DNA from: an uncultured delta proteobacterium
GTDB lineage: Bacteria > Myxococcota_A > Polyangia > Polyangiales > Polyangiaceae
Length of the DNA: 64,000 nucleotides
Assembly: GCA_963782055.1 (NCBI GenBank)
Contig: CAWAIF010000003.1
Location: forward strand, 5,184,001-5,248,000
Direction of reading: 5' to 3'
Positions 2,503-60,667 of the stretch are shown here, piece after piece (the stretch's first letter is position 1; each line of letters begins with the position of its first letter). Under the pieces are notes generated by a model. The model saw only the letters and a program-made list of their open reading frames with translations. It made no database searches and was not told where the DNA came from. The position numbers and the translations under genes are program-made.

Positions 2503-2550
2503 TATGCGAAATGGGGCCGTCCGGCCTCACTGGAAGGACGGACCAGGGTG
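2503..2550 (+). repeat. 99-bp unit, right half only (copy 1)
   Basis: TATGCGAAATGGGGCCGTCCGGCCTCACTGGAAGGACGGACCAGGGTG matches the right half of 43862-43960. Confidence 0.9.
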
Positions 2551-2565
2551 CGTAGAGTGGGCTGC

Positions 2566-3846
2566 TCAAAGACAGCTGCGTGGCTGCAAGATCAGCCCAG
2601 GCGCGGGGCTCTGGTGAAAGTCGAACGCGCCGAGGAGGTCACCGGCGGTTCCGTCCCGCGCGGTGGGCGACTCGCTCGACATGCGCGGCAGTCCGAAGAG
2701 ATCCTCGATGAGACGTGGGATGGAGGCCTGCTCGGTCGGCGTGTGGTAGACGCCGCCCTTCGCCGTCCACGGCGAGATCAGCAGCGTGGGCACGCGAAAC
2801 CCCGCGTTGAAGGGACCGGCGTCGCCCTGGCAAGGCGCCACGGTCGGCGCGACGTGATCGTAGAAGCCGCCCCAGTCGTCGTAGGTGACGATGAGCAGCG
2901 ACTCGTTCCAGTGCGGGCCCTGCATGATCGCGTTCGCGATGGCGACCGTGTCGTTCTCTCCGAGGCAGATGTTCTGGGGCGGGTGCTCGCTGTGATTGCC
3001 GCCCCAGACGTAGGTGATGTTCGCCATGTCGCCGGCCTTCAGGTCGCCGAGCAGGGCGCTGTTCAGCTTCGTCATGCCGCTCGTGCCCGCCGCGTGGACG
3101 CCCTGGATCGCGTCGAACGGCGAGGCCAGCGGCACCGTCGGCACGTACCGATCGGTGTAGCTGCGCCAGGTCACGCCGTCGGGCAAGTGGTCCACGATCG
3201 AGGGGATCGAGAAGCAGGGCTTCCGCGCGCCGTTCTCCGCGCACGTCGACGGATCGTAGGTGGGGGCCACCGCTTGATCCGTGTCGGCGCAGCTCCAGTC
3301 GACCCCGCTGGGATTCTCGTACGCCGGAGACTGCGCCGAGATGAGGGCCAGATAGCCGGGGAAGCTTCCGCCGAGGGTCGTGCTGAAGAAGGCATCACAC
3401 AGCACGTACTGGTCGGCGTACGCGTAGTAGTTCGGGATCGTCGCCTTCGTGTACTGCTCGAACGGCAAGAGCGGATCGGTGGGCTGCGGTACGAGATCGA
3501 AGCCGTCCATCGCGCCGTGGTCGTAGCTGGTCACGGCGGCCGGGTGTTCGTGCGCGGGGTTACCGTCCAGCGTGCCCTGCGGCATCGGCGTGAGCGGACG
3601 CGTACCGCCATCGGACAGCCTGGCTGCCGACGCGCCGTCGACGCCCGGGTACGCGCCGAAGAGGCTGTCGAAGGTGTGGTTCTCCTTCACGAGCACCACC
3701 ACGTAGCGGATCGGAGACGCGATCCCCGCGTCGGCATCCGGCCCGGCGTCCGGGGGTGGCGCCGTCGAGTCGGGGCTGTCACAGGCCGCCGCCGCGAGCG
3801 TCGCGATCACGACGAGGCCACTCGCCCACCGCACCAAGCTTCGCAT
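2566..3846 (-). CDS. Phosphoesterase / phospholipase C family lipoprotein
   Basis: Lipobox AAAC; VVLVKENHTFDSLFG, SEHPP, TYDDWGGFYDHV, GFRVPTLLISPW. Confidence 0.9.
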   Translation of the reverse strand: MRSLVRWASGLVVIATLAAAACDSPDSTAPPPDAGPDADAGIASPIRYVVVLVKENHTFDSLFGAYPGVDGASAARLSDGGTRPLTPMPQGTLDGNPAHEHPAAVTSYDHGAMDGFDLVPQPTDPLLPFEQYTKATIPNYYAYADQYVLCDAFFSTTLGGSFPGYLALISAQSPAYENPSGVDWSCADTDQAVAPTYDPSTCAENGARKPCFSIPSIVDHLPDGVTWRSYTDRYVPTVPLASPFDAIQGVHAAGTSGMTKLNSALLGDLKAGDMANITYVWGGNHSEHPPQNICLGENDTVAIANAIMQGPHWNESLLIVTYDDWGGFYDHVAPTVAPCQGDAGPFNAGFRVPTLLISPWTAKGGVYHTPTEQASIPRLIEDLFGLPRMSSESPTARDGTAGDLLGAFDFHQSPAPGLILQPRSCL

Positions 3847-4037
3847 CCGTCACCGTCCCTCATGTCACTCGCGCGTCCGTTGGGAGAAGAGGCCGTCCAG
3901 AGGGGATCGTACGTCAAAGGGGGCTCGCACGGTGGCGTCTGCCGGGCTACGACGGGGGCGCGAAAAGAATCGTGCGGGGGCGTGTCGATCCGGCGGCGGC
4001 TCCTTCGTCGCGAGATCGGAACCCCGAGGAGGATCCC

Positions 4038-4409
4038 ATGAAGTACCTGACATTCATCCGCCACTCCGAGTCCTACCGCGCCACCCCGCCACCGTCCGCG
4101 CTGATGGACGCCATGCGCGAGTTCGTGGAGCGTTCGTTGAAGGAGGGCACGCTCCTCGACACCGGTGGCCTCTTGCCGAGCAAGGACGGCGTGCGCGTCC
4201 GGCTCGCGGCCGGCAAGATCACCGTGACCGACGGGCCGTTCAGCGAGGGCAAGGAGATCATCGGTGGCTGGGCCATCCTGAAGACCGACTCCAAGGCCGA
4301 GGCCGTCCGCGTCGCGACCGAGTTCATGGAGCTGCATCGAAAGCACTGGCCCGGCTTCGAGGGCGAGTCGGAGGTGAGGCCGATGTTCGACCCCGGCATG
4401 GGGCCGTAG
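4038..4409 (+). CDS. YciI/DGPF-domain protein
   Basis: TVTDGPFSEGKEIIGGWAI motif; GAGGAG RBS before ATG 4038. Confidence 0.85.
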   Translation: MKYLTFIRHSESYRATPPPSALMDAMREFVERSLKEGTLLDTGGLLPSKDGVRVRLAAGKITVTDGPFSEGKEIIGGWAILKTDSKAEAVRVATEFMELHRKHWPGFEGESEVRPMFDPGMGP

Positions 4410-4475
4410 CGCGTCGACATCGGGAGCTGGCGCGCGCGCTCGCCGCGACGTTCGTGGTGACGCCCGGAGACGTGT

Positions 4476-6869
4476 GTGAGAGCATGGCCGATCGTGGGTC
4501 ACGCCTATTTCGACCGGGGCGCCGCCAGCCGGCGGTTCGAGGCCGAACGAGCGACGACCCTGCGCTCGCGTGTCCGGACGCTCGTCGTCGTCCTGTCGGT
4601 CTTCTGGCTGCTCCAGCTCGCCTTCGGTGACGCGAAGGTCTTCGCCGCGGCCTGGGCGATCGTCGTCCTTCGCGTGGTCGAGGCCGTCGCGAACGTGGCG
4701 CTCCTCGTCGCGCTTCGAACGCCGAGCGCGTCCCTGCCCGGGCTCGAGCGCCGCACGCTGGCGTGGTTGAGCGCCGTCGTCGTGAGCATGGGTGTGGCGG
4801 TGTTCGGCGCGAGGCCCGAGTTCGTCCCGATGATGATTGGCAGCTACTTCGTCGGGATGCTCGCGTTCACCGGCTTCGGCTTCCGGTGGCGAACGATGGC
4901 GGCGATGCACGCGCTGTGCGTCCTGACGTTCCTCCCCGTGGGGCTGGTGCTGATGCCGGCCTGGCGGTTGGTCTACGTCGTGGTGGTCTCCATCTTCGCG
5001 CTGCCGTTCACGCTCCTCGCGGTCTCCGGGGCGTTCCGCGACCGGAGCGAGCTCGCGGCCATCGACGCCCAGCTCGCCCTCACCGCGACGAACGAGCGGC
5101 TGCGTGCCACCGAGGAGGCGCGGTCCCGTCTCTTCGTGAACCTGAGTCACGACCTCCGGACGCCGCTCGCGATCATCCGCGGGGACGCCGAGCACCTGCT
5201 CGCTGCCGCGCCAAACGCCGACGGCGCACGGTCGCTGCAGCGCATCACCCGCAACGCGGAAACGCTCGTCGAGCTCACGGCGCAGCTCCTCGAGCTGGCG
5301 CGCATCGACGAGGGGCGCCTGCCGCAGCAGCTCGCCAACGTGGACGTCGTGTCGCTGGCTCGCGACATCTGCGCGCAGCTCGCGCCGCCGAAGGGGGTCC
5401 GCTTCGTGTTCGACGGCCACGACGTGGTGGCGCGCGCCGACCCGCGGCACGCCCACCGCGTACTGGCGAACCTCGTGGGGAACGCCGTCCGCGAGCTGCG
5501 CCGCGGCGGCAGGGACGGCACGGTCGAGATCCGCGCGAGCCGCGACGAGCGACGTGGTGCCGTCGTGGTCGACGTGATCGACGACGGGCCCGGCGTGCCC
5601 ACCGACCGCCGAGCCCACCTCTTCGAGCGCTTCGCCCATTTCGACCGGGCCGGCGACACCGGCTCGGGTATCGGCCTGGCGCTCGCTCGCGAGCTCGCCG
5701 AGTTCGACGGCGGCTCGCTCGAGTACGTCGACTCCGCCGCGAGGACGACCTTTCGCCTGACGCTCCCGGAGGCGACGGGAACGGCCGACCCGTTCCCCTG
5801 GAGCTCGCGGGCGCCGAGCGCGCCGGCGCGACCCGTCGACACGACCGGCGTGCGCCCGGAGCACGCGCCGCGCATCCTGGTGGTCGAGGACTGGCCCGAC
5901 ATGAGCGACGTGCTCGTCCGCCTTCTCTCGCCCGCATTCGACGTCGAGACGGCCGCGACCGTGGCCGACGCCGTGGCGACCGCGCGCGCGGTCATGCCGA
6001 CGGCGGTGCTGGCCGACGTGATGTTGCCCGACGGCAACGCGTACGACCTGCTCCAGCGCCTGCGCGCCGACCCCGAGCTGGACGCCGTTCCGGTCGTGCT
6101 CCTCTCGGCGCTCGGCGAGCCCGCGGACCAGGCGCGCGGCCTGGCCGCAGGCGCCGACGACTACGTCGCGAAGCCGTTCTCGCCGCAGGAGCTCCTCGCG
6201 CGGCTGCGCGCCTGCATCGAGCGAGCGGCGACGCGAAGGCGCGCGCTCGCCGAGCAGCGTCGCGAGCTCGCGCTGGAGCTGCACGATGGCGTGGCGGGCG
6301 ATCTCGCGCGCGCCGTGGTGCTGCTCGGCGACGACGCGACGAACGCGCCGGCCCTCGAGGGCGCCCGCGCCGCCGTTCGCGAGGGTCTGCACGAGATCCG
6401 CTCCCTGATGTGGACGACCACGCATGCGCCCGAGTGGCGGGGGCTCGTGGCGAACGTCCGTCGCGGCCTCGCCGAGACATGCGAGGGGGCGGGCCTCGAG
6501 CTCTCGTTCGCCTCTAGCTCCGACGACGACGAGACGCGCGTCCCACCGACCGTCGCCCACGCGCTTCGCCGGATCACGCAGGAGTGGGTGACCAACGTCA
6601 TCCGCCACTCGGGCGCGAAGAAGGTGTCGTGCGTCCTGGTGCACGGCGACGGCTTCGTGCACGCGCACATGGAAGACGACGGCCGCGGGCTGGACGTCGC
6701 GCGTCCGGCCGGTCATGGGCTCGCCGGCATCGCGCGCCGCGCGCGGGCGCTCGACGGCCACGCGTCCTTCTCCAACGGCGACTCGGGCGGCGCGGTGATC
6801 GAAGTGGCGCTCCGGCTGATGCGGCGTCCGCGCGCCACGGGTCATCCGGAGCGCGCATCCGGCGATTGA
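4476..6869 (+). CDS. Membrane hybrid sensor kinase: TM-HisKA-HATPase-REC-HisKA_3-HATPase
   Basis: Hydrophobic N-terminus; SHDLRTPL; NLVGNA/DDGPG/GSGIGL; REC VVED..LADVMLPD..KPF; second kinase LHDGVA..NVIRHS..EDDGRG..GHGL. Confidence 0.85.
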   Translation: MRAWPIVGHAYFDRGAASRRFEAERATTLRSRVRTLVVVLSVFWLLQLAFGDAKVFAAAWAIVVLRVVEAVANVALLVALRTPSASLPGLERRTLAWLSAVVVSMGVAVFGARPEFVPMMIGSYFVGMLAFTGFGFRWRTMAAMHALCVLTFLPVGLVLMPAWRLVYVVVVSIFALPFTLLAVSGAFRDRSELAAIDAQLALTATNERLRATEEARSRLFVNLSHDLRTPLAIIRGDAEHLLAAAPNADGARSLQRITRNAETLVELTAQLLELARIDEGRLPQQLANVDVVSLARDICAQLAPPKGVRFVFDGHDVVARADPRHAHRVLANLVGNAVRELRRGGRDGTVEIRASRDERRGAVVVDVIDDGPGVPTDRRAHLFERFAHFDRAGDTGSGIGLALARELAEFDGGSLEYVDSAARTTFRLTLPEATGTADPFPWSSRAPSAPARPVDTTGVRPEHAPRILVVEDWPDMSDVLVRLLSPAFDVETAATVADAVATARAVMPTAVLADVMLPDGNAYDLLQRLRADPELDAVPVVLLSALGEPADQARGLAAGADDYVAKPFSPQELLARLRACIERAATRRRALAEQRRELALELHDGVAGDLARAVVLLGDDATNAPALEGARAAVREGLHEIRSLMWTTTHAPEWRGLVANVRRGLAETCEGAGLELSFASSSDDDETRVPPTVAHALRRITQEWVTNVIRHSGAKKVSCVLVHGDGFVHAHMEDDGRGLDVARPAGHGLAGIARRARALDGHASFSNGDSGGAVIEVALRLMRRPRATGHPERASGD

Positions 6870-7735
6870 GGCCGGCTCGCCTGACGACGAGGGAGGAGGC
6901 CCCTCGCACGGCCGACCGGGCTCCCGGTTGATCCCCTTAACCCGTGATCGGCTAACACTGACCATTAGACCAGGATTGCAAGCTGTCCGAGCTGTGCGCG
7001 CACGGGCAGAGGAAGCCGGCGACGGTTCGGGTCGGGCGCCTCGCGCAGCAGCAGGCGTCGCAGACGCGCGGCGATGGAGGCTAGCCGGCGCCCCGGGCGC
7101 GCCCGGCGACCGGCCGACCGCGCCCCCCGGACGCGACCTTGCGGGCGAAGGCACCCGGCCTGCCGGCGTTCCTGCGGTGCTCCGCCGGGCTGACGTTTGG
7201 GGATCGGCCCCGCGAGGCGCCTGGCCAGGCGCGCGAGCGTGACGTCGTCGACGGGCGCGCGCGCGTCGTGGATGACGCGGCCGCCGAAGACGGCGAGGTG
7301 GTGATCCGCGAGGAGCTTCGCGTCCGAAGCGGCGGTCGTGCGAGGCATCTGCAGTCCTTTCCTGGAGACCGGCGGCCCGGGACCCGCCCGAGCGTACCAT
7401 CGCGGGCACGCCGGCCGGGACCACGCCGCCTCGTCTGCGCCGGGATCGGAAGCTGTCTCGGCCTGCCCACGCGACGCCCCGCGTCGAGGCGCCTGCCGAG
7501 GCAGGTGGAGAACCGCACTCGAAATCGTGTGCGCACGATGCCCGCGCGCGAGGGAGGCCCGCTCGAGCGCGCGCGTGTGCTTGTCGTTGTCGGGTTGGCC
7601 TCCTCCTGCGTCGCGCCGGCGGCGGTCGTGCGCTGCGCGGCCTCGGCGGCTGCGAGCCCGCCCTCGAGGTGCGCGACGGGCGCGGCGTGCAGATCGGCCT
7701 TGTTCATGCGGCGATAGTCTGGTGAGTTCGCGATC

Positions 7736-10700
7736 ATGTCGAGTGTCCTCGCCGTGGTCTCCAAGGCCATTTTCGACAAGCAAGCCAAGGGCCTCGCGCC
7801 GGGCGCCGTGTGGGACACCGCCCGCTACGCGAGCCACAACCCGAACCTCGACGCGCTCGCGAGCGGCGGCGGCGACCTGTTCCTCGTCACGGTCCGCCCG
7901 AACGACGTCCTCTGGCTCGTCGCGATTCTCCGCGCGCCCAAGGCGGACGCCGACGGCTGGAAGAGCGCCCCGAACACGACCCCCGTCCGTGACGTCACCG
8001 AGCTCCTCCCGAACCTGAAGTTCTCGACCGGCAAGGGCGTGAAGGCCGACAAGGGCAAGCTCGGCATGTCCCTCCAGACCCCGCGCCAGCTCACCCCCGC
8101 CGACGTCACCCTCCTCGACGGCGCTCCCACGCCCCTGCCCACGCGCACGCCCACGCCCACGCGCACGCCCACGCGCACGCCCACGCCCACGCCCACGCCC
8201 CCGCCGACGACCACGCCCCGCGTCGTCCTCACAGAGACCGTGCGCAAGTGGCTCACGCCCAGCCCACCCAAGCCCCCCGCGCGCTACGTCCGCGCGGCGC
8301 GCGACAAGGCCGCCCAGGACGCGGCGCTCGCGAACGCCAAGCCCGAGGTCACCGCGCTCGCGGCGAAGATCCGCGCGTGGCTCGACGACGGAGCGCGCTT
8401 CACCGCGAAATACGACGACGAGACCCAGGTGGCGGCCGCGAATTTCCTCCAGCGCTTCTTCGGCGTGCCGGATTTCGCCGCGCATTGGGCTCACGAGCTC
8501 GGCGTCGCGCACGCCGCGCGGCTCCTTCTCCACGATCGCCTCGTCGATCTCGGGACCGGGGCCAAGCGAGAGCTCGTGCGCAGCAAGCAACGCCACGACG
8601 CCTACGACCACCAATTCGCGCTCTCGCGTCTGGTCCCCCACGCGCGCGGCCTCTCGCCCGACGAGCTCGCGGAGGTGAAGCGCGAGCTCGAGCCGATCGT
8701 CGCGCCGCTCCATCCGACGGTGCACCTGGCGCTCGCGCGCGTCGTCCGGGACCAGGAGACCATCGACGCCATCGCGCGTCGCGCGGCCAGCGACGCGGCG
8801 TTCTTCCAGAAGGCCGAGGAGATCGCTTCGATCTCGCGCGTCATCGTCGCCGAGTCGCACGACGCGGACGCGGTCGAGGCGATCCTCGTGAAGAAGCCTT
8901 CGTGCGTCCAATTCGGCGGCGCGCGGGGCCTCGCGCGCGCGCTCCAGAACATCCCCGTCGCGACGCTCGAGCGCGCGCTCCTCGCGATCTTGCCCGCCAT
9001 CGAGAAGAAGGCGACGCCCGGAGACTACAAGGAGATCTTGCGCGTGCTCGCGTGCATCGACGACGCGCCCGTCGCCGACTACCTCGCGCAGCGCGCGCAC
9101 GCGAAGCCGGTGCAGCCCGTCGCGCTCGAGTACTTCACGCTGCACCCCCACCACCTCGGCGCGCTCGAGGCGGTGTCGAAGCAGAAGGGCAAAGCGGGCG
9201 CGGCCGCCGCGACGATCCTCGACTCGGCGCGTCGCCACGCGCGTACGCCCGCGCCCACGCCCGCGCCCACGCCCACACCCACGGGCACCGCGGAACCGCG
9301 CGTGGCGATCACCGAGACCGTCCGCAAGTGGCTCACGCGCGACACGTTCAAGCGTCCCGAGCGCTTCGTCCGCGCGAACCAACCGAAGGACGTGCTGAAG
9401 CGGATCGACGACGCGCTCGGGCGCGCGGCCCCCGAGGTCGCGCCCATCGCCGCGAAGATCCGCGCCTGGCTCGCCGACGACGACGGGCGCTTCTCGGCCG
9501 CTCACGACGACGAGACCCAGGTCGCCGCGTCGAACTTGCTCCTGCGGTTCTGCCACGGCCTGCGCTTCCACACGCCGGACTTCGTCGGAAACTGGGTCGA
9601 GGCGTTCGGGGTCGAGCACGCCGCGCGCCTCCTCCTCCGCGACCCGATCGTCGATCTCGACTCCACGTCGCGCGTGGTCGACGAGCGGCTCGTGCGCGCA
9701 GCGGATGCCGGCGGCCGGGCCATCCGACTGGAGTTCGCGCTCCGTACGCTGCTCCCGTACGTGCGCGATTGCGCTCCGGAGGAGCTCGCCCGGCTGAAAC
9801 GCGAGATCGAGCCGCTCGTCGCGGACCTTCCCCCGGTGGTCCACCTCGCCGTCGCGCGCCTCGTGCGCGACCAGGAGACCATCGACGCGATCGCGCGACG
9901 CGCGGCCGAGGACGTGGCGCTCCAGCTGGACCTCGTGCGGTCCGGCGTCTTGAGTGTGCTCGTCGCCGAGTCGCGCGACGCCGATGCCGTCGAGAAGCTC
10001 ATCGTGATGGGGGGCAACGCCGCGCCGAGCCTCGCGTGCGCCCTCGAGCACCTCCCGGTCGCGACCATGAAGCGCGCCATGCTCGCGATCTCGCCGCAGA
10101 GCGAGAAGGCTACGCCGGGCCGTTACAAGGCGTTTCTCGAGGTGCTCGCGTGCATCGTCGACGCCGACGTGGCCGACTACCTGGCGCGCCACGCTCACGC
10201 GAGGCCGGCGCAACCCGTCGCGCTCGAGTACTTCACGCTCCACCCCCACCACCTCGGCGCGCTCGAGGCGGTGTCGAAGCAGAAGGGCAAAGCGGGCGCG
10301 GCCGCCGCGACCGTCCTCGAGTCCGTGCGCCGACGCGCGCCGGCCGGGGCTCCCGTGGCCGCCGCCGCGGCGACCGCGTCCACCGACGGCGTGCCCGTCG
10401 TGCTCCGCGCGCCTCCTTGGAAGAAGAAGGGCGACGGCGACGATCTCGTCCTCGATCTGCCCATCCCGATCGAACCGGTCACCCAGCTCCGCCCCGACGA
10501 GTACGTCAAGTGGGTGCAAGGCCCGCTCTGGACGCGATTCCGGGACGTCGCGAAGCTGAAGGCGCACCTCGAGTCGGGTCACTACCCCCAGATCCGCAAC
10601 GAGTACCTCGAGGGGCTCTTGACCGACCTCGGCCCGGAGGCGGCGCCGGTCGTGATCGAAGCGGCCGCGCGCGAGCCGGCGGCGAACATCGGCTTCCTCA

Positions 10701-12355: not shown

Positions 12356-12370
12356 GTTCACCCCGGAGGC

Positions 12371-12429
12371 CGCATAGGAAATGCTGGCGCGGTCGGGCGC
12401 GAAAGCTTGCGAAATCCGTGATATGCGAA
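12371..12429 (+). repeat. 99-bp unit, left half plus TATGCGAA (copy 2, diverged)
   Basis: CGCATAGGAAATGCTGGCGCGGTCGGGCGCGAAAGCTTGCGAAATCCGTGATATGCGAA; right-half hairpin absent. Confidence 0.9.
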
Positions 12430-12499
12430 GCTACCGTACGGCGCTGGCTGCGCACGGATCCACGCGCATCGGGCGACGCAGATCGTGTATGAAGCCTCC

Positions 12500-13168
12500 A
12501 TGACAATCTCCGTCGTCACGGGCGCCAACAGGGGTATTGGGCTCGCACTCGTCGCCGAGCTCACGAAGCGCGGCCACACGGTGCTCGCCGCGTGTCGCAA
12601 GGCCTCGCCCGAGCTCGAGAAGCTCGGCGCCGAGGTCGTCGTTGGCGTGGACGTCTCGACCGACGAGGGCATCGCCGCGCTCGTCGCCGCGGTCGGCGCG
12701 CGCTCGGTCGACCTGCTCGTGAACAACGCGGGCATCCTCGTATGGGGCGACCGCCTGGGAGCGCTGAACGTGGAGGGCATCCGCAAGCAGTTCGAGGTGA
12801 ACGCACTCGGGCCGCTCCGCCTCACCGATGCGCTGCGCGACAGGTTCCCCCGCGGGGCGAAGGTCGCGCTCGTCACCAGCCGCATGGGCTCGATCGACGA
12901 CAACTCGTCGGGCGGCGCGTACGGCTACCGCATGAGCAAGGCCGCGCTCAACATGGCGGGGAAGTCGCTCGCCGTGGACCTTCGCGAGCGAGACGTCGCC
13001 GTGGCGATCCTCCACCCCGGCATGGTCAAGACCGACATGGTCGGCGCGCACGGTGGCCAGGTGGAGCCCGCGGACGCCGCGCGCGACCTGCTCGCGCGCG
13101 TGGACGAGCTCACCATGGAGACCTCGGGCGGCTTCTGGCACGCGAACGGGCAGCGCCTGCCCTGGTAG
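12500..13168 (+). CDS. Short-chain dehydrogenase/reductase, CsgA (C-factor)-like
   Basis: VTGANRGIG, NNAG, YGYRMSKAALNM, LHPGMVKTDM. Confidence 0.88.
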   Translation: MTISVVTGANRGIGLALVAELTKRGHTVLAACRKASPELEKLGAEVVVGVDVSTDEGIAALVAAVGARSVDLLVNNAGILVWGDRLGALNVEGIRKQFEVNALGPLRLTDALRDRFPRGAKVALVTSRMGSIDDNSSGGAYGYRMSKAALNMAGKSLAVDLRERDVAVAILHPGMVKTDMVGAHGGQVEPADAARDLLARVDELTMETSGGFWHANGQRLPW

Positions 13169-13684
13169 CTCCCCGCCTCGACCTCGACGAGCGGCGGGTG
13201 CGTCCGTCGTCGATCGCGGGGCTCGTCGCGCTCGCGGTCCTGATGGTGGCGTGCCGCTCGTGACGACGCGAAGCGCGGGGCCCGAGAAGCCTCGCGCGGC
13301 CGCTGCGCCGGAGCCGCGCGACTCGAGCGACATCGACTGCGACCCGCCGCTCGGTCCGGCCTCGGGCCTTGCCGAGCCGCTGCGGATGCCTCATCGTCGC
13401 CCGCGTGAGATCGATCGACGAGCTGCTACGCCACGGCGCGAGACACCTGCAGTTGGACCGCGGCTTCCCGAACGGCTCGCTGCCCGCCGAAGACAAATCC
13501 ATGACGTCGTCGCCCACGTGAACGCCGCGCTCGAACGAGACGCGAGCCGGTATCGTCTGTACGGCTTCGCCGAGGACGTCGCCGGGTGGGAGAGTGACGA
13601 GCCGGTGATCATGCTCCTCACGGGGAGCGAGCGCGGCCGGCTCGTGGAGAGCGGAGTCGTGCGGGCCTAGCTCACCACGGGATC

Positions 13685-46906: not shown

Positions 46907-46908
46907 GT

Positions 46909-51648: not shown

Positions 51649-51662
51649 GGCGTCGCTGTCCT

Positions 51663-54057
51663 TCAGGAGGCTCGGTAGATTTCGTCTTCAAGCGAGCGAA
51701 CGGCCGCAACGTAGGCGTCTTTGCCACCGAACGTCTTCACGATCTCGACCGGCGTGCCGAACGTCGTGAGCGGTTGGACCCTCAGCACGTTCATGTCCTC
51801 GATGTCGTCCACGCCTTCGTCGGCGTACTTCGCCAGCAGGGCTTCGAGGACGGCTCGTGCCTGCTCGCCGTACTTGGTGAAGTAGTCGCGCTTCTTGACG
51901 TTGTTCGCCCGCTCCTTGCGGGTGAGCGGCGGCTGCCCGAACGCAACGTGGCAGACGAGAATCGAAGGCGGAAAAGTCCTTCCCGACCTCCTCGGCGACC
52001 GCATCGAGCAGGAGGCCGTGCGTCTCAAGTTCCTCTACGACGGCCTGCTTTCGGTCGGCCGCCTTCCATCGCCGGAGAAAGGCATCGAGCGACGTGAACT
52101 CCTCGCACATGGCCTTCTTCACGTAGTCCCGAAGCGACTCGGTGACGAGCTTGCCGTCGCTGCCGTAGTACTGCACGCGCTCTTTGAGCACATAGACCGG
52201 AACGTCACCGACGACGTACTTCACCCGCTTGCCGCCCTTGTGCTCGTGGATGATGGTGTCGCCCGCATCGCCGCCTTCGTCGGGATCGATCTCGGGCGGG
52301 AAGCCGTCGTCCCTTGGCGGAGCTTCGGTACCCGTGTCGTCGTCCGGGGGAGCGGGGGGATCGTCGCCCTTGGGTTCGTAGACGCGGACGGGGAGGCCGT
52401 CGAAGTCGGGATCGGCGAACAGCTCGGTCGCCTTCTTGAAGTCGAGGATCGTGAAGTAGAGCTTCCCGTAGTCCTCGCGGATGCGCGTCCCTCGGCCGAT
52501 GATCTGCTTGAACTCGGAGAGCGACTTGATGGTCTGGTCGAGGACGACCACTTTGCACGTCTGCGCATCGACGCCCGTGCTCATCAACTTCGAGGTGGTG
52601 ACGACGACGGGGTACTTCTTCTCGGGGTCGATGAAGTTGTCCAGCTCCGCCTTCCCCTCGGCGTTGTCCCCCGTGATCTGCATCACGTAGCGACGGTCGG
52701 CGGCGCAGAGGTCGGCGTTCTCGTTGACGAGCAACTGCCGCATCTCGCTCGCGTGCTCCACGTCCTCGCAGAAGACGATGGTCTTCGCCATCCGGTCGGT
52801 GGCCTTGAGGAAGTCGCTCACCTTCTTGGCGACCAAGCCCCTGCGTTGCTCAAGGACCAGCTTTCGGTCGAAGTCCCCCTGGTTGTAGACGCAATCCTCA
52901 ATCTCTTCGCCGTGCTTGTCGAGCTTCCCCTTCGGCGGGCGCCACCCTTCGAGATCCTTGTCGAGGTCGAACCGCACGACCTTGTAGGGTGCGAGGAAGC
53001 CATCCTCGATCCCTTGCTTCAAGGAGTAGGTGTAGACCGGCTCGCCGAAGTAGTGCGTCGTCGAGATGTCGGTCGTCTCTTTGGGGGTCGCGGTCAGGCC
53101 GATCTGCGTGGCAGCCGAGAAGTAGTCGAGGATGTCGCGCCAAGCGGAGTTCTCGGCCGCGCTGCCCCGGTGGCACTCATCGACGATGATGAGGTCGAAG
53201 AAGTCGGGACTGAACTCCTTGAAGATGTCCTTCGTCTCGTCGGTGCCCGTGATCGCCTGGTAGAGCGCGAGGTAAATCTCGTACGACTTGTCTACCTTGC
53301 GGTTCGTGATCTTCGTCATCGCCTTGCCGAACGGCTTGAAGTCGTTCGTCTTGGTCTGATCGACGAGGATGTTGCGGTCCGCAAGGAAGAGGATCCGCTT
53401 CTTCGCCTTCGCCTTCCACAGGCGCCAGATGATCTGGAAGGCCGTGAACGTCTTTCCTGTCCCGGTCGCGAGGACGATGAGGATGCGGTTGTCGCCGCGT
53501 GCGATGGCCTCGATGGTCCGGTTGATGGCGTTGAGCTGGTAGTAGCGGGGCGGCTTGCTGGTGGCCTCGCTGTAGTAGTCTTGGGTGACCACGGGTTCGG
53601 CCTCCGCCGTGATCCCCTTCCACACGCAGTAGCGGCGCCACAGCTCGTCGGGAGACGGGAACTCGTCGAGCGTGAGGTTGCGCTCCATGGGCTTCGTGTT
53701 GCCCGTGCGGTCATGGACGACGAAGCCGTCGCCGTTCGAGGAGAAGACGAACGGGACGGCGAGCATCTCGGCGTATTCCAACGCCTGCTGCATCCCGTCT
53801 CCGACGCGGTGGTTGTTGTCCTTCGCCTCCATGACGGCGACCGGGAGCCCCGGCTTGAAGTAGAGGACGTAATCGGCCCGCTTCGACTTGCCCCGCGTGA
53901 TGAGCTTGCCCCGAACAATCACGCGACCGTTGGTGAAGGAGAGTTCCTCGCGCACTTGCACCTGAAGGTCCCAGCCCGCCTGCTCGATGGCGGGGTTGAT
54001 GAACTTCGTGCAGATGTCCCGCTCGCTCAGGGACTTCTTGTCGATGGAGTCGGCCAT
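51663..54057 (-). pseudogene. hsdR: Type I R-M restriction subunit (EcoAI-like) with +1 frameshift near 51960
   Basis: [29 protein letters not shown]-terminal [23 protein letters not shown] lies in another frame. Confidence 0.88.
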
Positions 54058-54336
54058 GTCGATGGGGATCCCAGGGTACCCGAACTTGGGGTGTCGGGAG
54101 CTTCAAGGGACGACCTCTGGCCCAAGCCGCCGACCCCACGATCTGCGCTTCCGGCATGGTCCGCCGGGGCAGTTGGCCTGACCCCCGATGGTACCCCCAA
54201 CGCAGGCCGTTTTGATCGAAGCGTCCCCTCCCGTGTATTCACCCCATGGGAAGCGCACGAAACACCATCCAGGCGTCCCAAGCCGATGAAACGGGAGGTA
54301 GCGACCCGGCCCGTACCTGCCTCGTCTGCGGCAGGG

Positions 54337-54388
54337 CGCATAGGAAATCCTAGCGCGGTCGGGCGCGAAAGTTTACGGAATCCATCTT
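54337..54388 (+). repeat. 99-bp unit left half (copy 8)
   Basis: CGCATAGGAAATCCTAGCG..CCATCTT. Confidence 0.92.
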
Positions 54389-54566
54389 GGACGAAGCCGC
54401 TGCGCGGCAGCGTGGCTCCGCATCAAGCTCGCTCGCGACCCGGGAGCCCCGCGAGCCGTGTGCGCGCTGACGAGCCCGCCTCGTAGCCCTCGCGTGCCGT
54501 GATGCGGGCGATCCTGCGGCGCGCGCCGCCCGCTCGTGGGCGCGCGCGGAGCCGAAGGAGGCCGCG

Positions 54567-55412
54567 ATGGGTGCGAAGCGAAGACTGCGGGACACGATGA
54601 GCGAGGACCTCGCGCTGCGAGGGATGAGCGCCAACACGATCGCCACGTACGTGGGGTGCGTGCGGCGGTTCGCGCAGTACCACGGGCGGTCGCCGTGCGC
54701 GCTGGGGGCGGCGGAGATCCGGACGTTCCTTTTGCACCTGGTGGCGGAGCGCAGGCTGGCGGCGCTGACGGTCAACGTGCACGCGGCCGCGCTGAGGTTT
54801 CTCTACGAGGTGACGCTGGAGCGGCCGGAGGCGACGCTGGGGATGGCGCGCATGCGGGTGCCGATGCACGTGCCGGTGGTGCTGACGAGCGCGGAGGTGG
54901 CGCGGCTGCTCGCGTCGCTCACGAGCCACAAGCACCGGGCCCTGGTGATGCTCGCCTACGGGGCGGGGCTGCGCGTGAGCGAGGTGTGCAAGCTCCGGGT
55001 GGACGACATCGATCCGAAGCGGATGCTCCTGCACGTGCGGCACACCAAGCGCGGGCGTGAGCGCTACGTGATGCTCAGCGCGAGGCTGCTGGCGACGCTG
55101 CGCGCGTACTGGAAGGCGTCACGACCCGCAGGACCGCAGCTGTTTCCGGGGCGCGTGCCCGGGACGCTCCTCACGCGCGCGGCCGTCCACCGGGCGATCC
55201 TCAAGGCGGCGCGGCGCGCGGGCATCACCCGGCGCGTGTCGCCGCACACGCTGCGCCACAGCTTCGCCACGCACCTGCTCGACGCAGGGACCGACCTTCG
55301 CACGTTGCAGGTCTTGCTCGGGCACGCGTCGCTCAGGAGCACGATGGCCTACCTGCACGTGAGCACCGCCCGCGTGCAGTCGATTCAGAGCCCCCTCGAC
55401 GCGCTGCCCTGA
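54567..55412 (+). CDS. Tyrosine recombinase/integrase
   Basis: Same 281-aa protein. Confidence 0.95.
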   Translation: MGAKRRLRDTMSEDLALRGMSANTIATYVGCVRRFAQYHGRSPCALGAAEIRTFLLHLVAERRLAALTVNVHAAALRFLYEVTLERPEATLGMARMRVPMHVPVVLTSAEVARLLASLTSHKHRALVMLAYGAGLRVSEVCKLRVDDIDPKRMLLHVRHTKRGRERYVMLSARLLATLRAYWKASRPAGPQLFPGRVPGTLLTRAAVHRAILKAARRAGITRRVSPHTLRHSFATHLLDAGTDLRTLQVLLGHASLRSTMAYLHVSTARVQSIQSPLDALP

Positions 55413-55419
55413 GCCCCCG

Positions 55420-56577
55420 ATGCACCCGTCGTGTGCGCCCGCGCGCACGTGCGCGGCGCCCATCGAGCTCGCGGACGTGGTGCGCGCCCACGGCGAGGCC
55501 TTCGCCGGCGGCCGCGTGCTGCGTCCCGAGGAGCGGTCGGCGCTGCGGGCAATCGAGCGATGCCGGACCGCCGCGCTGGGCGGACATCTGGACGTGTGCA
55601 CCGCGTGCGGGCTCGAGCGACCGTCGTACAACTCGTGCCGCAACCGGCACTGTCCCAAGTGCCAGTCGCTCGCGCAGGCGCGGTGGGTCGCCACGCGGCT
55701 CGAGCGCATTCTGCCCGTGCACTACTTCCACGTCGTCTTCACGCTCCCCGCCGAGCTGCGCGCCGTCGCGCGGCGCTCGCGCGCGAGGGTCTTCGACATG
55801 CTCTTCGCGAGCGCGGCCGACACGCTGGCCACCCTCGCGCGGGATCCGAAGTGGCTCGGCGCCGAGCTCGGCGTCACGATGGTCCTGCACACCTGGACGC
55901 GCGCGCTGCTCTTCCACCCCCACGTGCACGCCATCGTCACCGGCGGCGGACTCACCGGCGACGCCGCGCGCTGGGTGCGCGCGCGCCGTCGCTTCCTCTT
56001 CCCCGTGCGCGTGATGGGCGCCCTCTTTCGCGGCAAGATGCTCGCCGCTCTCGAGCGCGCCCACGCGCGCGGCCTCGTCGACCTGGGCGGCGTCGACCTG
56101 CTGGCGCTCCGACGCAAGGCCTGGGTCGTCTACGCCAAGCGACCCTTCGGCGGCCCCGCTCAGGTCATCCGCTACCTCGGTCGCTACACTCACCGCGTCG
56201 GCATCTCCAACCACCGCTTCGTCTCGATGGGCGAGCGCGGCGTCACCTTCCGCACCAGAGACGGCAAGTCGGTCACCGTCCCGGCCGAGGAGCTGCTCGC
56301 GCGCTTCGTCCAGCACGTGCTGCCGCGCGGCTTCGTCAAGATCCGCCACTACGGCCTGCACTCCGCCAGCCACGCCACCACGCGCCTCGAGACCGCACGC
56401 CGCAGACTGGATCCGCACGCGCCCGCTGCGCGACCGGAGCGCCGTGCCGTCGCCGCCGACCTGCTGCTGCGAATCGCGGGCATCGACCTGCGCCGCTGCC
56501 CCGCTTGCCACACGCCTGCCCTCGTGCGCACCGCGCTGCCCGAGCCCCGAGCTCGCGCCCCGCCGAGGGCCGCATGA
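55420..56577 (+). CDS. IS91-family (HUH/Y2) transposase, intact
   Basis: Zn-binding domain, HPHVH, RYLGRYTHRVGISNHR, QHVLPRGFVKIRHYG. Confidence 0.95.
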   Translation: MHPSCAPARTCAAPIELADVVRAHGEAFAGGRVLRPEERSALRAIERCRTAALGGHLDVCTACGLERPSYNSCRNRHCPKCQSLAQARWVATRLERILPVHYFHVVFTLPAELRAVARRSRARVFDMLFASAADTLATLARDPKWLGAELGVTMVLHTWTRALLFHPHVHAIVTGGGLTGDAARWVRARRRFLFPVRVMGALFRGKMLAALERAHARGLVDLGGVDLLALRRKAWVVYAKRPFGGPAQVIRYLGRYTHRVGISNHRFVSMGERGVTFRTRDGKSVTVPAEELLARFVQHVLPRGFVKIRHYGLHSASHATTRLETARRRLDPHAPAARPERRAVAADLLLRIAGIDLRRCPACHTPALVRTALPEPRARAPPRAA

Positions 56578-56904
56578 TCTCCCCGCGTCGTGCTCCACTG
56601 CGTTCGCTCCACGAGTGCGGCCCAGGCCCCGGTCCATCCGCGCCACCAAAAACCGCCCCCCGAGCACGCACGGCTGCCCGCTGCGCGCTCCGGGACGCCC
56701 GCGTCGAGCGCCGTCCCGCCGCCCGCTCCGCACCTCGCGCACCCGCACGCGTGACCCACACGCCGCCAACTTCCCCATAGGGCTCCGAGGCCACCGCCTC
56801 GCCGCTGCCGCGCACCGGCTTCGTCCAACCGTCGATTTCGCGACCGCGCACCCGCGCCACGCGACCGCCGCCGCGACCCGGCGCGCTCACGCAATCGACT
56901 CTTA

Positions 56905-56954
56905 CTTATGCGAAGTGGGGCCGTCCGGTGTCACTGGAAGGACGGACCAGGGTG
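56905..56954 (+). repeat. 99-bp unit right half (copy 8)
   Basis: CTTATGCGAAGTGGGG..CAGGGTG. Confidence 0.92.
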
Positions 56955-59658
56955 GCTGCCGGATGGAACCACGATTACGACGGTACCATCCGCTGATCCA
57001 CGCTACGGGTTCGGCTCGGCCTACGTGTCGTCGTCGACGGCATCGATCGGTGGTCACTCGGTGGCCACCAGTACCTCAATTCAGGAGCAGTTGAGCGATG
57101 CGTCGGACCCGCGCACCCTGACGGGACAGACGACGTACGGCACGGTCCTGATCAATTCGACGCCGTACACCGTGTCACAGGTGTTTAGCGCGGGCCCCCC
57201 TGCTACTGTCACCTACACCACGCCCGCAGGTCGTACCGCCACGCTGACGCTGGATGCCAACGACCGCGTGACGCAAGTCCAGGTGGGTGGCGACGTGCCC
57301 GGCCACCCTGGCTCGAGCCTAAATGCGACCAATATCGGCTACGACTCCGGCCGCCTCGGAACAATCAGCCAGGGTTCTACGCCAACGACACTAACCACGA
57401 CGTACCACTACAATTCGTCGACGGGCTTCCTCGATTCGGTCGATGGCCCCTTCGGATCCCACGTGTTCAACAATCCAACCCAGGACGCGCTCGGGCGGCC
57501 CTCGCATGTGTCGCTCCCGGGAGGAAACGTCGTGGGCCTGACGTATGACACCGCGGGCCACGTGAATTCGGTGACGGTGCCCCAGGGCTACGTCCATGGG
57601 TACGGGTTCAACGCCGACGACCTCCTGGGCTCGCACGCCCCACCGAGCGCCTCGCCCGGCGGGCCGACCAACTATGGCTACTCCCCGGAGCGCCTCCTGT
57701 CTTACGTCGAACCACCGGGCACGGTGGTCAGCTACGATCACGACGCTGACGGCCGCATCTCCAGCATCTCCTACCCGAGTCCGGTTGACGGGACGATGCG
57801 GCAGACCTCGTTCGGCTACTATGCCGACAACGACCCGCAGACTGGACACGCCAAGGGACACGTCTCCACGATCGACGACACCGACGTGAACCTGACCTAC
57901 AAGTACAACGGCCCTCTCCTGACCTCCGAGGAGTTCCAGGTCCCGAACTACGGCGCGACCTTCGACCACACCGTCCACTACGGCTACGGCGACCACCTCC
58001 CCCGCGTCACCTCGCGCGACATCGACGGTGCCGCCGGCTTCACCTTCACCTACGACGACCTGAACGGCGCCGCCAACAACGGAGGCGTCGGAGACGCCGA
58101 CGGCTACCTCTGGCGGATCACGGGCGGCGGACAGGACTACACCGTCACGCGCGCCGCAAACGGGATGATCGCCAGCCCGACGGTCGGGGCACTGAGCGAG
58201 GGCTACGAGTACGACCTGAACGGCGCGCTCACCAGGTACTGGATGAAGCACGGCCAGACCACGCTCTACGAGGCAGACTACACGCGCAACCACGCGGGCA
58301 GCGAGCGGGTCCAGAGCGAGACGGAGATCGTGAACGGCATCTCGTGCGCGATCGGCTACGACTACTACCCGGACAACCGCCTGCACACCGTCACCAACTC
58401 CTGCGGCGGCGGCGGGTCCTACAGCTACAACCCCGACGGCACGATGTCCGGGCCGACGCACGACGCGCAGGACCGGACCATCGACGACGGCCCCACCCAC
58501 TTCGCCTACGCGGCCGACGGATCGACCTACAGCCAGTCCGGATCGAACTACCTCGTCAACTACCGCTACGATCCCGCCGGCAACCTGCTGCACTTCGACC
58601 GCAACGACGGCGGCAACGCGCGCACCTACGACTACCGGGTCGACGGCCTGAACCGGCGGATCGCCCGGACGACGCAGGACCAGCGCGGATGGCTCTACGA
58701 CGGCGACCGCATCATCGGGGAGGTGGACGGCACGGGCCGCGTGGTCGCCCACTTCGCCTACTTCACCCACGCCAACGTCCCCGACCTGATGCTGCGCCTG
58801 GACTGGGACAACAACTGGATCCTCTACCGCATCGTGACCGACCAGCTCGGCACCGTGAAGGCGGTGATCCGCACCTCCGACGGCGCGGTGATGGAGCTGT
58901 ACTCCTACAGCGACGCCTGGGGTGCGATGAGCGCCGTCTACGACGGCAACCTCCAGTGGCTCAACGGGGGCTCCCCGACCTTCCAGCCGTTCGGGTTTGC
59001 AGGCGGGCTGGTGGACTACTATGCTGGTACCCTGCGCTACGGCGCGCGAGACTACAACCCCTGGCAGAGGAGGTGGCTGACGCAGGATCCGATCGGGCAG
59101 GCTGGCGGGCTGTACGTGTATGGGTACTGCCATGACGATCCGGTGAACTGCGCAGATCCCTCTGGGCGTTTCGGCGTGGGTGGCCTTTTGGATCTGTACA
59201 ACGCCACGGTCGGCTCGTTTCTTGGAAAGATCAATGCCGCGGAGGCAACGGCGGTCGGGCTCGCGTTCGGTGCGGCAGGCGTCGCCACCAATGTTGTTGA
59301 CGGAAAGGAGTACGGCGTTGACTACTCCGTGGACATAGGAAATAACGCAATCGAATTTAAGGGGCATCCGGTGGTTGGCGCATTTACGCCGGCCGTCACA
59401 CTCGGAAACGTAATCTGCTACGAGAATGCCTCGCCTGGCCCATACACGCAAGCTCACGAGAGACAGCACACCTATCAGGCTGAAACGCTCGGGGATCTCT
59501 ACTTGCCGGCGCAAGCCGACTCTCAGGTGCTAGGATTTGTTAGTAGTTTTTTTGATAGCAGCCACACGTACAGCGGCTTAAACGACAGAGTTCACGGGCC
59601 CGGAAATCTCTTGGAGACGGGGCCGTCGATGGTTGATCCGCAACCGTGGCCGTGGTGA
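56955..59658 (+). pseudogene. RHS/YD-repeat toxin, 5'-truncated at the repeat; C-terminal HExxH domain
   Basis: YD repeats; RYGARDYNP..WLTQDPIG..PVNCADPSG core end; HERQH in the lower-GC tip; ORF-track start lies inside the repeat. Confidence 0.85.
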
Positions 59659-59670
59659 ACGATTAGTCGC

Positions 59671-60243
59671 ATGAGGTTGCTCGCCATGGGTGGTACCAAT
59701 TGGCAGTGGATACACTCCTCACTGGCAAGGGTGGTGGCGACTGTGATGGTGGCGGGTGTTGGTGTGCTCGCCCTTCAGCTCGTACTGGCCTTGGGTGTGA
59801 TGGCTGGACATGGCCACCGACACTCCTTCGTCACGACTCTGACCCCTCCAGCTGGGATGACTGTGAACGAACGCTGTGTGCGCACCGGCCTAGTTCGGGG
59901 CTTTGGCCGAAACCGAGTGGGTGAAAGTCATGCTGATGGTCGCACGACTTTTCATGTTCGGGTATATGGTCCACCGTCCAAAGATCGACGTAATGGTATC
60001 GTTTTCTACGCGGCCATCGCGCGACACGGAGGCGCAGCCAAAGATATCGTCGAACTCGAGGGCGAATGGTTTCAGCAAGAACCGATGAGCAAGTTTGACG
60101 CAATGGCGTCGACGGGCATGTCGCGAATTGTATCCGCTATCTCCGCTTCATGCGGCTCAGGCGCTGGACCTACTGCAGCCTGGAAGGCCGCTTGTAGGTA
60201 CGGAGACCTCACGGATGGCCCATGCCCGACCCCCAAGTTATGA
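59671..60243 (+). CDS. Putative immunity protein (membrane-anchored)
   Basis: Directly downstream of the RHS tip, lower GC, N-terminal TM. Confidence 0.55.
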   Translation: MRLLAMGGTNWQWIHSSLARVVATVMVAGVGVLALQLVLALGVMAGHGHRHSFVTTLTPPAGMTVNERCVRTGLVRGFGRNRVGESHADGRTTFHVRVYGPPSKDRRNGIVFYAAIARHGGAAKDIVELEGEWFQQEPMSKFDAMASTGMSRIVSAISASCGSGAGPTAAWKAACRYGDLTDGPCPTPKL

Positions 60244-60322
60244 CGGACGGACTGAAACGGGTCCACAGCGAGACGGAGATCGTGAGAAATAGCGCATGCG
60301 GCATGCTTGTTGAACAACGCTC

Positions 60323-60568
60323 TTGCCGGCGGCTCGCCACTGGACCGGGTCCTTGTCCCGGAGGTCTACCGTGACATTGGGTAACGTTCTCGGTCGGCTG
60401 CACGGGAGGAGCTCTTCTTGGTGTCGTCGGGCCTGTACATGCCTGATAGCGGTTGCGCTGACCGCGCCCGCCTGCGGCGTGCGGAGCAACCTGGACGCCT
60501 GCCCCACCTCCGAGACGGCCTGCGGCTTCACCTGCGCCGATCTCAGCGGTGACCCGGCCAACTGCGGG
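60323..60568 (+). pseudogene. Cys-rich lipoprotein, 3'-truncated at the repeat
   Basis: LIAVALTAPACG..CPTSETACGFTCADLSGDPANCG runs straight into CGCATAGG. Confidence 0.65.
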
Positions 60569-60667
60569 CGCATAGGAAATGCTAGCGCGGTCGGGCGCGA
60601 AAGTTTACGAAATCCATCTTATGCGAAGTGGGGCCGTCCGGTGTCACTGGAAGGACGGACCAGGGTG
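60569..60667 (+). repeat. 99-bp unit, intact empty copy (copy 9)
   Basis: Single CTT at 60618-60620. Confidence 0.95.

Follow-up and report, generated by a model that had tools for sequence, protein, structure and literature searches.

The window analyzed here, i.e., a stretch of 64,000 nucleotides from an uncultured delta proteobacterium of the Polyangiaceae (assembly GCA_963782055.1, contig CAWAIF010000003.1, termed C3 below, positions 5,184,001 to 5,248,000 of the forward strand), is punctuated by copies of a short repeat unit that we termed S. S has a length of 100 bp (GCGCATAGG...GGACCAGGGTG) and consists of a 53-nt left half and a 47-nt right half, as defined by reading its junctions and by genome-wide BLAST searches with the halves and their flanks. 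A repeat search located S at nine loci, all on the + strand; four of them carry a module composed of a tyrosine recombinase gene and an IS91-family transposase gene (int+tnp), for which we use the working name IS385, and two are empty. An earlier description of this DNA from its letters alone (hereafter the sequence-only reading) had listed nine co-oriented copies of 99 bp; their count and orientation hold, and the length is corrected to 100 bp. The same description had placed one int+tnp module at a single point of four copies and counted two empty ones, which the identical junctions bear out. Its separate "half copy" at 28650 is instead part of one occupied unit, which includes the module at 32049 and is split by a group II intron. 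The copies of S in the window are as follows:

2504-2550, +: right half of S only (94% identical), beginning exactly at ATGCGAA; left flank unrelated
12370-12430, +: degenerate left half of S plus 8 nt (ATGCGAAG), with divergence thereafter
15287-15374, +: near-whole S (84% identical) without the 12 nt CTTATGCGAAGT that hold the insertion sequence (IS) target point
17776-20190, +: occupied S; left half 17776-17828, IS 17829-20145 (tnp with 200-bp deletion), right half 20146-20190
28650-28702, +: left half of the occupied S whose IS begins at 32049
32049-34415, +: IS with deleted tnp (32049-34368), then right half of S (34369-34415)
37391-39817, +: occupied S; left half 37391-37443, IS 37444-39770 with deleted tnp, right half 39771-39817
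43861-43960, +: empty S, identical to the master copy located beyond the window
54336-56954, +: occupied S; left half 54336-54388, full-length IS 54389-56907, right half 56908-56954
60568-60667, +: empty S, directly followed by the first of ~3 tandem RHS-tip modules of ~3 kb

Copies of S are 95–100% identical across 100 bp, and among 40 related genomes only partial matches of 31–48 nt were found, in four of them; taken together, this excludes chance. Folded as DNA, S performs no better than shuffled sequence (z-scores of −0.42 and −0.64 for the two strands) and forms local hairpins only. Its two ends are mutually unrelated and no duplication flanks it, i.e., S has neither the terminal inverted repeats nor the target-site duplication (TSD) of a MITE (miniature inverted-repeat transposable element). 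Gene calls were based on GC3-guided choice of open reading frames, complemented by Pfam and NCBIfam scans. No tRNA genes, which could serve as integration targets, were found within the window.

TnpL master copies and arrays across the genome

The array in the window continues past both window limits and spans C3 5,176,835-5,265,262 with 13 loci, all on the + strand. In the whole genome (7.58 Mb), BLAST returned 66 matches to S, which are grouped in a few clusters and mostly co-oriented inside each cluster. The array noticed in the sequence-only reading is thus real, and the BLASTN search proposed there showed clustered, largely co-oriented units that are nearly absent from the 40 relatives. 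Arrays reach 13–20 units over 75–90 kb of chromosome, and one tandem S–S pair lies at 4,433,280-4,433,479. The clusters are:

C3 2.725-2.741 Mb, +
C3 4.411-4.487 Mb, mostly −: array B
C3 5.177-5.265 Mb, +: the window array
a few smaller places

A genome self-comparison revealed the same block of 1.3–2 kb to the right of the last S in all three large arrays. This block encodes TnpL, a 573-aa HUH protein with the Pfam domains Zn_Tnp_IS91 (7.8e-16) and Y2_Tnp (1.8e-27), in whose translation the HFH motif is visible and which is only marginally alignable to the transposase of IS385. Its best NCBIfam match is ISCR clade Ia (274.8 bits, E 1e-81; cut-off 925), and the generic IS91 model scores 99.7 bits (cut-off 125). 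The likely 573-aa frame is open at 5,265,299-5,267,020 and 4,409,731-4,411,452, and frameshifted in the third copy. We refer to these tnpL-bearing copies as masters; the window array closes on its master at C3 5,265,163-5,267,127, 17 kb past the window. In the master layout, tnpL reads toward S, a 36-bp spacer separates the stop codon from the right edge of S, and S follows in reverse, uninterrupted and holding a strong hairpin. The three masters agree through ...TTTCCTATGCGC / ...GGATTTCCTATGCGC, i.e., the reversed left edge of S, and diverge from the next base. At the other end of the element, where members of the IS91/ISCR family have a defined terIS, similarity among the masters begins ~107 bp upstream of the start codon, at the G+C-rich repeat GGTGTCCGG. 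Both edges of solo copies (S without tnpL) are sharp, the inner one corresponding to GTGCT|CACCC in the master, and the flanks of full copies show no target duplication.

TnpL and S share with the IS91/ISCR family an HUH Y2 transposase with an N-terminal zinc-binding domain, an oriIS with subterminal palindromes 3' of the gene, and neither terminal inverted repeats nor TSD. According to the available text of PMC13181058, oriIS of IS91 is found downstream of tnpA, and insertion proceeds through a single-stranded circular intermediate. The same text and the available part of PMC6218425 describe one or two palindromes in the oriIS end of IS91/ISCR elements, downstream of the transposase gene.

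Relatives of TnpL were retrieved from 46 loci, mostly in metagenome-assembled genomes (MAGs) of Myxococcota, with 35–65% identity, and the downstream sequence of 18 was inspected. In nine of the 18 (L019, L020, L022, L023, L027, L029, L030, L034, and L039), a terminal motif ...GCTT(N)YCCTAY.., i.e., of the (Y)CCTAY type, is found 150–330 bp after the stop codon, where the element ends. The closest homologue, L022, aligns with the spacer and S in three blocks (66/100 paired columns), which take in CGCATAA..TTCYGTAAACTT as well as the inner edge GTGCT|CA. S adjoins tnpL at the transposon end and aligns with the 3' ends of homologues, which identifies it as the oriIS-terminal segment, i.e., the last 100 bp, of an ISCR-like IS91-family element and not as an independent recombination site.

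Five other genomes were searched for solo ends, each with its own oriIS end as the query. G042 has a master at C10 84869-85056 and seven solos of the last 94 nt on the + strand at 92.5–116 kb (≤31 kb downstream), plus two on the − strand; identity is 97–99% in the four solos nearest the master and 76–88% in the three farthest. In G043, a Vicinamibacteria MAG, solos lie 3.0 and 5.7 kb downstream of the master, and one more is distant. G041 has a solo 1.5 kb downstream of its master, followed by the contig end, and co-oriented clusters on three other contigs; these solos begin at GTGCT|CAAAT, homologous in position to the inner edge in the Polyangiaceae genome. Two strong solos on small contigs were found in G045, and two weak partial matches only in G044. 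Judged by these comparisons, arrays of miniature ori ends on the master's oriIS side are a recurrent property of the TnpL clade. That a relative in a different genome has its inner edge at the matching position suggests that TnpL also cuts or terminates there. Relatives of the recombinase (Int) were present in 3 of the 46 homologue loci and in no case inside a unit.

The arrays are polar. Identity to the master unit drops with distance from the master in the window array (rho = −0.81, 17 hits) and in array B (rho = −0.52, 22 hits), both values being rough. The arrays reach out from the master's oriIS side alone, and their youngest units adjoin the master. The degenerate copies at the left end of the window (84–94%) are the oldest part, and the growing end of the array is outside the window.

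Elements lodged in S and cargo between the units

Among the window copies of IS385, which are 97–100% alike, only the one at 54389-56907 (2519 bp) is full-length. It encodes:

54567-55412, +: tyrosine recombinase, 281 aa (Phage_integrase and SAM_4)
55420-56577, +: IS91-family transposase, 385 aa (Zn_Tnp_IS91 and Y2_Tnp)

A 200-bp deletion in tnp is shared by the other three window modules (products of 318–319 aa) and one copy elsewhere. The left junction with S reads ...CCATCTT|GGACGAAG, the right junction ...CTCTTACTT|ATGCGAAG. The left end of IS385 is TGGACGAAGCCGCTGCGCGGC with a hairpin, and tnp is followed by a TCCCCATAG motif and by the left end repeated in inverted orientation. The transposase scores 390.6 bits against NF033538 (cut-off 125). 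The recombinase keeps its catalytic signature (R in GLRVSE, HTLRH, and GH...Y in MAYLH) and is intact in all four window copies; against the integron-integrase model TIGR02249 it reaches 198.9 bits (cut-off 265), in two stretches that skip profile positions 180–239. No match above the TIGR02249 cut-off, i.e., no true IntI, was found in the genome.

A distant DNA search of plasmids returned 334 records, and at least 13 among the 20 matches listed pair an IS91-family transposase with a tyrosine recombinase. The matching plasmid loci are annotated in RefSeq as "IS91-like element ISAzo26/ISMno24 family transposase" beside a tyrosine recombinase. ISAzo26 and ISMno24 elements share with IS385 the left end TGGAC[GT]AA[GA]CCGC with a hairpin, TCCCCATAG after tnp, and the inverted left-end copy. 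By its genes and ends, IS385 is thus assigned as a new member of this known IS91 subgroup, which we take to be a group listed in ISfinder, and it is separate from S. The sequence-only reading had taken the int+tnp module for the driving part, or for one of the cassettes, of a new system; the module is an IS that has inserted into S. A likeness of the left flanks of ISMno24/ISAzo26 to the left half of S, noticed by eye, was dropped because the orientation is ambiguous.

The insertion is strict. In the whole genome, 13 of 14 left ends of IS385 adjoin the left half of S (11 directly, two across the intron), the remaining one lying in a rearranged fragment, and right-half sequence follows each of the 13 right ends (11 whole, two cut). 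The orientation within S is always the same, and the insertion point is CCATCT|TATGCG. The halves of S do not co-diverge with the IS: one relative of the IS with a 77.6% core carries a 96% left half of S, and two 99% IS385 cores adjoin a variant left half with only ~81% likeness to the usual form. The target in S, CTTA-TGCGAAG-hairpin, resembles the own left end of IS385, CTTG-GACGAAG-hairpin. In IS91-family insertion, oriIS comes to lie beside CTTG- or GTTC-like tetranucleotides, as stated in the available text of PMC13181058. For the ISAzo26/ISMno24 group, no report of an IS inserting at a single point of another transposon's oriIS was found in the openly accessible literature.

The group II intron and its parts are located as follows:

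28702-32047, −: group II intron, exactly between the left half of S and the left end of the IS; 5' end GTGCG at 32047
30668-31618 and 28790-29254, −: intron reverse transcriptase/maturase frame, split by a DDE IS at ~29250-30710
C3 6,187,897-6,191,356: further intron copy
C3 2,272,277-2,274,253: intron fragments

Rfam D1–D4 matches lie at 31645-31966, and RVT_1 and GIIM domains were detected in the intron frame; the DDE IS that splits it has >10 copies in the genome. The intron adjoins the terminal hairpin of IS385, just after the hairpin on the intron strand. In either left-half variant, the composite of intron and IS385 occupies the same point (CATCT| and CACGT|), which puts the cut a single base to the left of the ambiguous CTT. 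This suggests either repeated homing or co-transposition of the intron with the IS, and by analogy with one-ended transposition of IS91 it suggests that IS385 can carry DNA beyond its own left end.

Ordinary ISs with inverted repeats and 8–12-bp TSDs were also observed at nearly the same point of the unit:

C3 4,450,607-4,452,130, this genome: ordinary IS, TSD TTATGCGA
C11 1,042,763-1,044,130; 1,475,650-1,476,537; 3,159,315-3,160,402, G041: three different ISs in units, TSD about TAATGGGGCGTT

The central part of the ori end is a hotspot at which elements of several types insert. An isolated IS385-occupied S (C3 5,977,204-5,980,806) lies between diverged tandem paralogous segments of ~1 kb (93% and 75%). 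The right paralogue begins exactly at the right edge of S (GCTCGCCGG...), at a point that, judged from DNA alone, seems to fall within the 3' end of a response-regulator gene. GCTCG is the start of four right flanks in the genome.

The segments between units measure 2.4–10.4 kb and hold several genes on both strands, some of them cut by a unit. The description of the cargo in the sequence-only reading, i.e., unrelated, arbitrarily cut multi-gene segments, was confirmed by an RHS frame that begins inside S and a kdpD gene cut by a unit. Also in line with that reading, unit-bounded blocks recur at other arrays, e.g., a 4-kb block present three times (block C). The main cargo features are:

39818-43860: block C, PD40 beta-propeller and Sel1-repeat genes; three genomic copies, homology stopping at the edges of S
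2,734,656-2,738,675: block C copy, 99.3%
5,256,707-5,262,054: block C copy, 100%, with a DDE IS inside
43961-54335: cargo of 60–66% GC with a defense island (44520-54057), type I hsdS, hsdM, and hsdR and a D12 adenine methylase
56908-59658: truncated RHS-repeat open frame, beginning inside the right half of S

In the window, block C has S on both sides. The 2.73-Mb copy lacks S on the left and has S 24 bp earlier on the right; in the 5.26-Mb copy, S joins 150 bp further in (both points being GCTCGA), and on the right the sequence continues without S. This latter copy forms a 100%-identical block of 3.9 kb at a distance of 8.5 kb from the master, bounded by an S edge, and no paralogues of its flanks were found. 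Across four arrays, ten junctions of non-IS repeats end ≤3 bp from an outer edge of S (six right, four left) and none at the internal CTT, where the sequence-only reading had placed the crossover. The RHS-tip modules are joined as X|Y without S at 63796 and 3 kb on; other junctions are X|S|Z at 4,437,719 and W|S|Y at 60568, the letters standing for the adjoining sequences.

The kdp fragment, which is cut in kdpD by a unit of a sister array, is 79–81% like the genome's own kdp locus, and the right half of the window has 58–66% GC vs. 72% in the genome; both values indicate that cargo can be foreign. Mapping of the cargo to uninterrupted loci, as had been proposed earlier, revealed no unit as a simple insertion: a genome search with the 200-nt flanks of every unit edge for paralogues without S matched one side at most, and both flanks were contiguous nowhere in the genome. 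When window positions 1-17700 were compared with six genomes of the same genus, synteny was limited to single genes (77–84%) on different contigs, and no neighbor was conserved within 1.5 kb.

Several further features accompany the cargo. The defense island also includes a SocA/Panacea antitoxin-like gene with a 127-aa partner and an unknown gene of 479 aa. The RHS-tip modules (~3 in tandem, each ~3 kb) extend from 60667-64000 on to C3 5,253,582; each encodes a protein of ~620 aa with an RHS-associated core at residues 205–282 and a variable tail, and the module junction is a perfect 8-bp hairpin, GGTACGCC-TAC-GGCGTACC. A DUF4132 gene (7736-12355, 1539 aa) has internal tandem repeats of ~1.1 kb (8160-10374, 75–81%), and homology to its paralogue (C3 4,510,172-4,513,329, 84%) ends 18 bp before the S remnant at 12370. 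A repeat family unrelated to S (63527-63735, ~200 bp) has ~20 genomic copies with 81–90% identity. Another repeat (24581-25010, ~430 bp, ~ten copies, 79–90%) overlaps a frame with a weak 23S_rRNA_IVP match, and the flanks of two IS385-occupied units belong to the same family. Finally, a 340-bp piece at C3 4,411,489-4,412,028, 100% identical to contig C2 3479-3818, lies between two inverted units, both ori edges facing the piece; on C2, the DNA runs on past either end of the piece, with a TnpL-like fragment at a distance of 360 bp.

How the arrays may have formed

The identities, homologies, junctions, and polarity described above are established here, and from them we infer the strand-transfer steps and the acting enzyme. 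We consider it probable, as far as homology and junctions can tell, that gene capture is driven by the HUH transposase TnpL, with S serving as an oriIS miniature. TnpL would nick at the ori edge of S. A displaced strand ending at the conserved inner site would give a 100-nt miniature end-fragment, as known for IS801, and a strand starting from a solo, which has no ter end, would run into the neighboring DNA and end at the next unit or a ter-like site, giving a unit plus cargo. Such pieces would be reinserted, preferentially near the master. These steps would account for the co-orientation, the tandem S–S pair at 4,433,280-4,433,479, the recently made copy of block C close to the master, and far ends without S.

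Several points weigh against this reading. TnpL reaches the curated cut-off of neither NCBIfam model. The hits behind the identity gradient are non-independent, as the halves of one site are counted apart and left-half hits extend a few bases into IS385. Block C joins S at two positions per side (39818 vs. the equivalent of 39968, and 43860 vs. 43836), whereas a unit-plus-cargo model predicts a fixed junction, so that block C calls for extra events, e.g., a 150-bp deletion between the GCTCGA repeats. A clean insertion, of which the 200-nt flank search revealed no case, is needed by the miniature model as well, namely at the origin of each junction. The 340-bp piece shared with C2 is unexplained by the model. 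We observed neither circles nor nicks nor any transposition event, and according to the available part of PMC6218425, transposition of ISCR elements has yet to be demonstrated by experiment. The right-half-only remnants at 2504 and C3 4471751 start precisely where the IS inserts, which also fits the recombinase or the IS acting at CTT; recombinase action at this site may occur.

More tentatively, the role of TnpL could be extended to a complete system: an ISCR-like HUH clade might run a polar cassette array, integron-like but without an integrase, in which miniature oriIS ends take the place of attC and the ori edge of the master that of attI. Pieces would be cut between successive nick sites and stacked beside the transposase gene, in genomes from Myxococcota to Acidobacteriota. 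The recombinase-bearing IS91 elements would be specialized parasites or partners of this system, possibly integrating double-stranded circles that the HUH enzyme cannot insert.

Among the alternatives, a reading without dedicated capture is rather unlikely. Here, S would be a passive miniature that hops locally, and the mosaic would arise from homologous recombination among copies of S and of the 2.5-kb IS within an insertion hotspot. The arrays are indeed rich in IS4-like, IS66, Mutator, and IS3 elements and group II introns, other ISs sit at the same point of the unit here and in G041, and the IS cores, being 99% alike, could shuffle flanks. According to a retrospective analysis, IS801 fragments in P. 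syringae also mostly reflect reorganization and act as recombination substrates, as described in the available text of PMC3189936. However, recombination between direct repeats deletes DNA and does not build arrays, and the strict co-orientation, the position of arrays only on the master's oriIS side (five cases), and the identity gradient would be left unexplained, as would the 100%-identical 3.9-kb block with an S edge as its boundary only 8.5 kb from the master.

The mechanism favored in the sequence-only reading, in which the tyrosine recombinase exchanges strands at a CTT core of S, excising circles of the type [right half - cargo - left half] and stacking them in the manner of integron cassettes, appears improbable. 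It would give work to a recombinase whose catalytic signature is kept and whose gene is intact in all four window copies; joined IS ends (AATCGACTCTTA-CTTGGACGAAG) would resemble the target (AATCCAT-CTTATGCGAAG), the two right-half-only remnants begin exactly at the insertion point, and double-stranded circles of IS91, which TnpA alone does not insert in the account available from PMC13181058, are a possible task for the enzyme. However, all ten mapped breakpoints lie at the outer edges of S, the two junctions share only 3 bp, and arrays of the same design surround TnpL homologues in G042, G043, and G041, with Int relatives at just three of the 46 loci and never in a unit. Moreover, the recombinase lacks the integron-integrase insert (198.9 vs. 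265 bits) and is not an IntI, and S has no attC-like fold, which speaks against a recombinase-driven, integron-like system as originally conceived.

A MITE origin of S, in which an internal deletion between CTT repeats would have fused the two ends of the int+tnp IS and this IS would move the product, is very improbable. The two halves do flank every IS copy, and a deletion between the CTT at both junctions would yield S. This derivation is contradicted by the uninterrupted S beside tnpL in the masters and by the continuous homology of S with TnpL-type 3' ends in genomes without such an IS there; in addition, the halves do not diverge with the core (77.6% vs. 96%; 99% vs. ~81%), and the IS family has its conserved ends, TGGAC..., at the inner junction. 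An assembly artifact from collapsed or chimeric repeats, to which the many 1.4–2.5-kb repeats of 99% identity in the region could give rise, is the least credible of all, as the genome is in three contigs, the copies differ by private changes and unique flanks, other assemblies show the same layout, and window segments are matched at 100% by short contigs from an independent soil run, which break off at the S edge like a true repeat. Positions 43000-61500 were compared with contigs of two low-share runs (0.10 and 0.06 of sampled words), which covered them in short pieces that leave many parts uncovered and gave no informative joints.

Comparison with known systems

The arrays belong with the biology of ISCR/IS91 elements and are new in scale, order, and conservation. 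ISCR elements, e.g., ISCR1 of complex class 1 integrons, likewise combine an HUH Y2 transposase with an oriIS downstream of its gene and have captured variable DNA on the oriIS side, where the available part of PMC6218425 places the variable region of ISCR1; gene capture by rolling-circle read-through is proposed for both. In contrast to ISCR, the oriIS end is here amplified as dozens of 100-bp solos in polar chromosomal arrays with multi-gene, arbitrarily cut cargo, and TnpL, with 274.8 bits vs. a cut-off of 925, represents a distant clade. A co-oriented pair of oriIS copies that brackets a captured gene is also known from the "sandwich" of ISCR28 (PMC12772301, citing Yuan et al., in its available part); that case, however, is a single sandwich with one resistance gene, whereas the arrays described here are long, ordered, and show an age gradient. 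Right-end miniatures of IS801 (229, 360, and 679 nt), which arise from one-ended transposition, resemble S in that they keep the ori end, have a fixed internal start, are mobilized in trans, and lack inverted repeats and target duplication, as far as reported in the available text of PMC3189936. Unlike S, they measure 229–679 nt and are few and scattered, without arrays or polarity; the inner edge of S, GTGCT|CA, is conserved between genomes. IS385 shares its gene pair, spacing, and end motifs with the ISAzo26/ISMno24 group and differs in being found strictly at one point of another transposon's oriIS end. In the openly accessible literature, without supplements, we found no description of arrays of solo oriIS miniatures or of oriIS targeting by Int-carrying IS91 elements.

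ISCR elements are blamed for gene capture, and their natural, non-clinical behavior is poorly known. Chromosomal arrays of the kind described here are a natural record of it, with dozens of near-identical solo ori ends, an age gradient, and recently re-copied 4-kb blocks, and the same layout is found in at least three other genomes from two phyla. S supplies a concrete biochemical substrate, i.e., a 100-nt DNA with two defined candidate cut sites. Also new, to our knowledge, is that an IS91 element with a recombinase gene homes strictly into the origin of a different transposon, which offers a handle on the role of this recombinase.

The closest resemblance in layout is to sedentary chromosomal integrons, which also have co-oriented sites of ~100 bp with the newest units beside the enzyme gene and cargo rich in toxin–antitoxin, restriction, and toxin modules. 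In both systems, other mobile elements home into the repeated site; IS1111-attC elements and group IIC-attC introns do so in integrons. Unlike integrons, the arrays have no IntI and no attC-type fold, and the nearby enzyme is an HUH transposase. Integron cassettes are mostly single, promoterless, co-oriented open reading frames with attC, whereas the cargo here is multi-gene, on both strands, and includes genes cut by the unit. If polar stacking holds true, bacteria would have a second, HUH-based route to integron-like gene accumulation, by which restriction, toxin–antitoxin, and RHS modules would have been gathered here.

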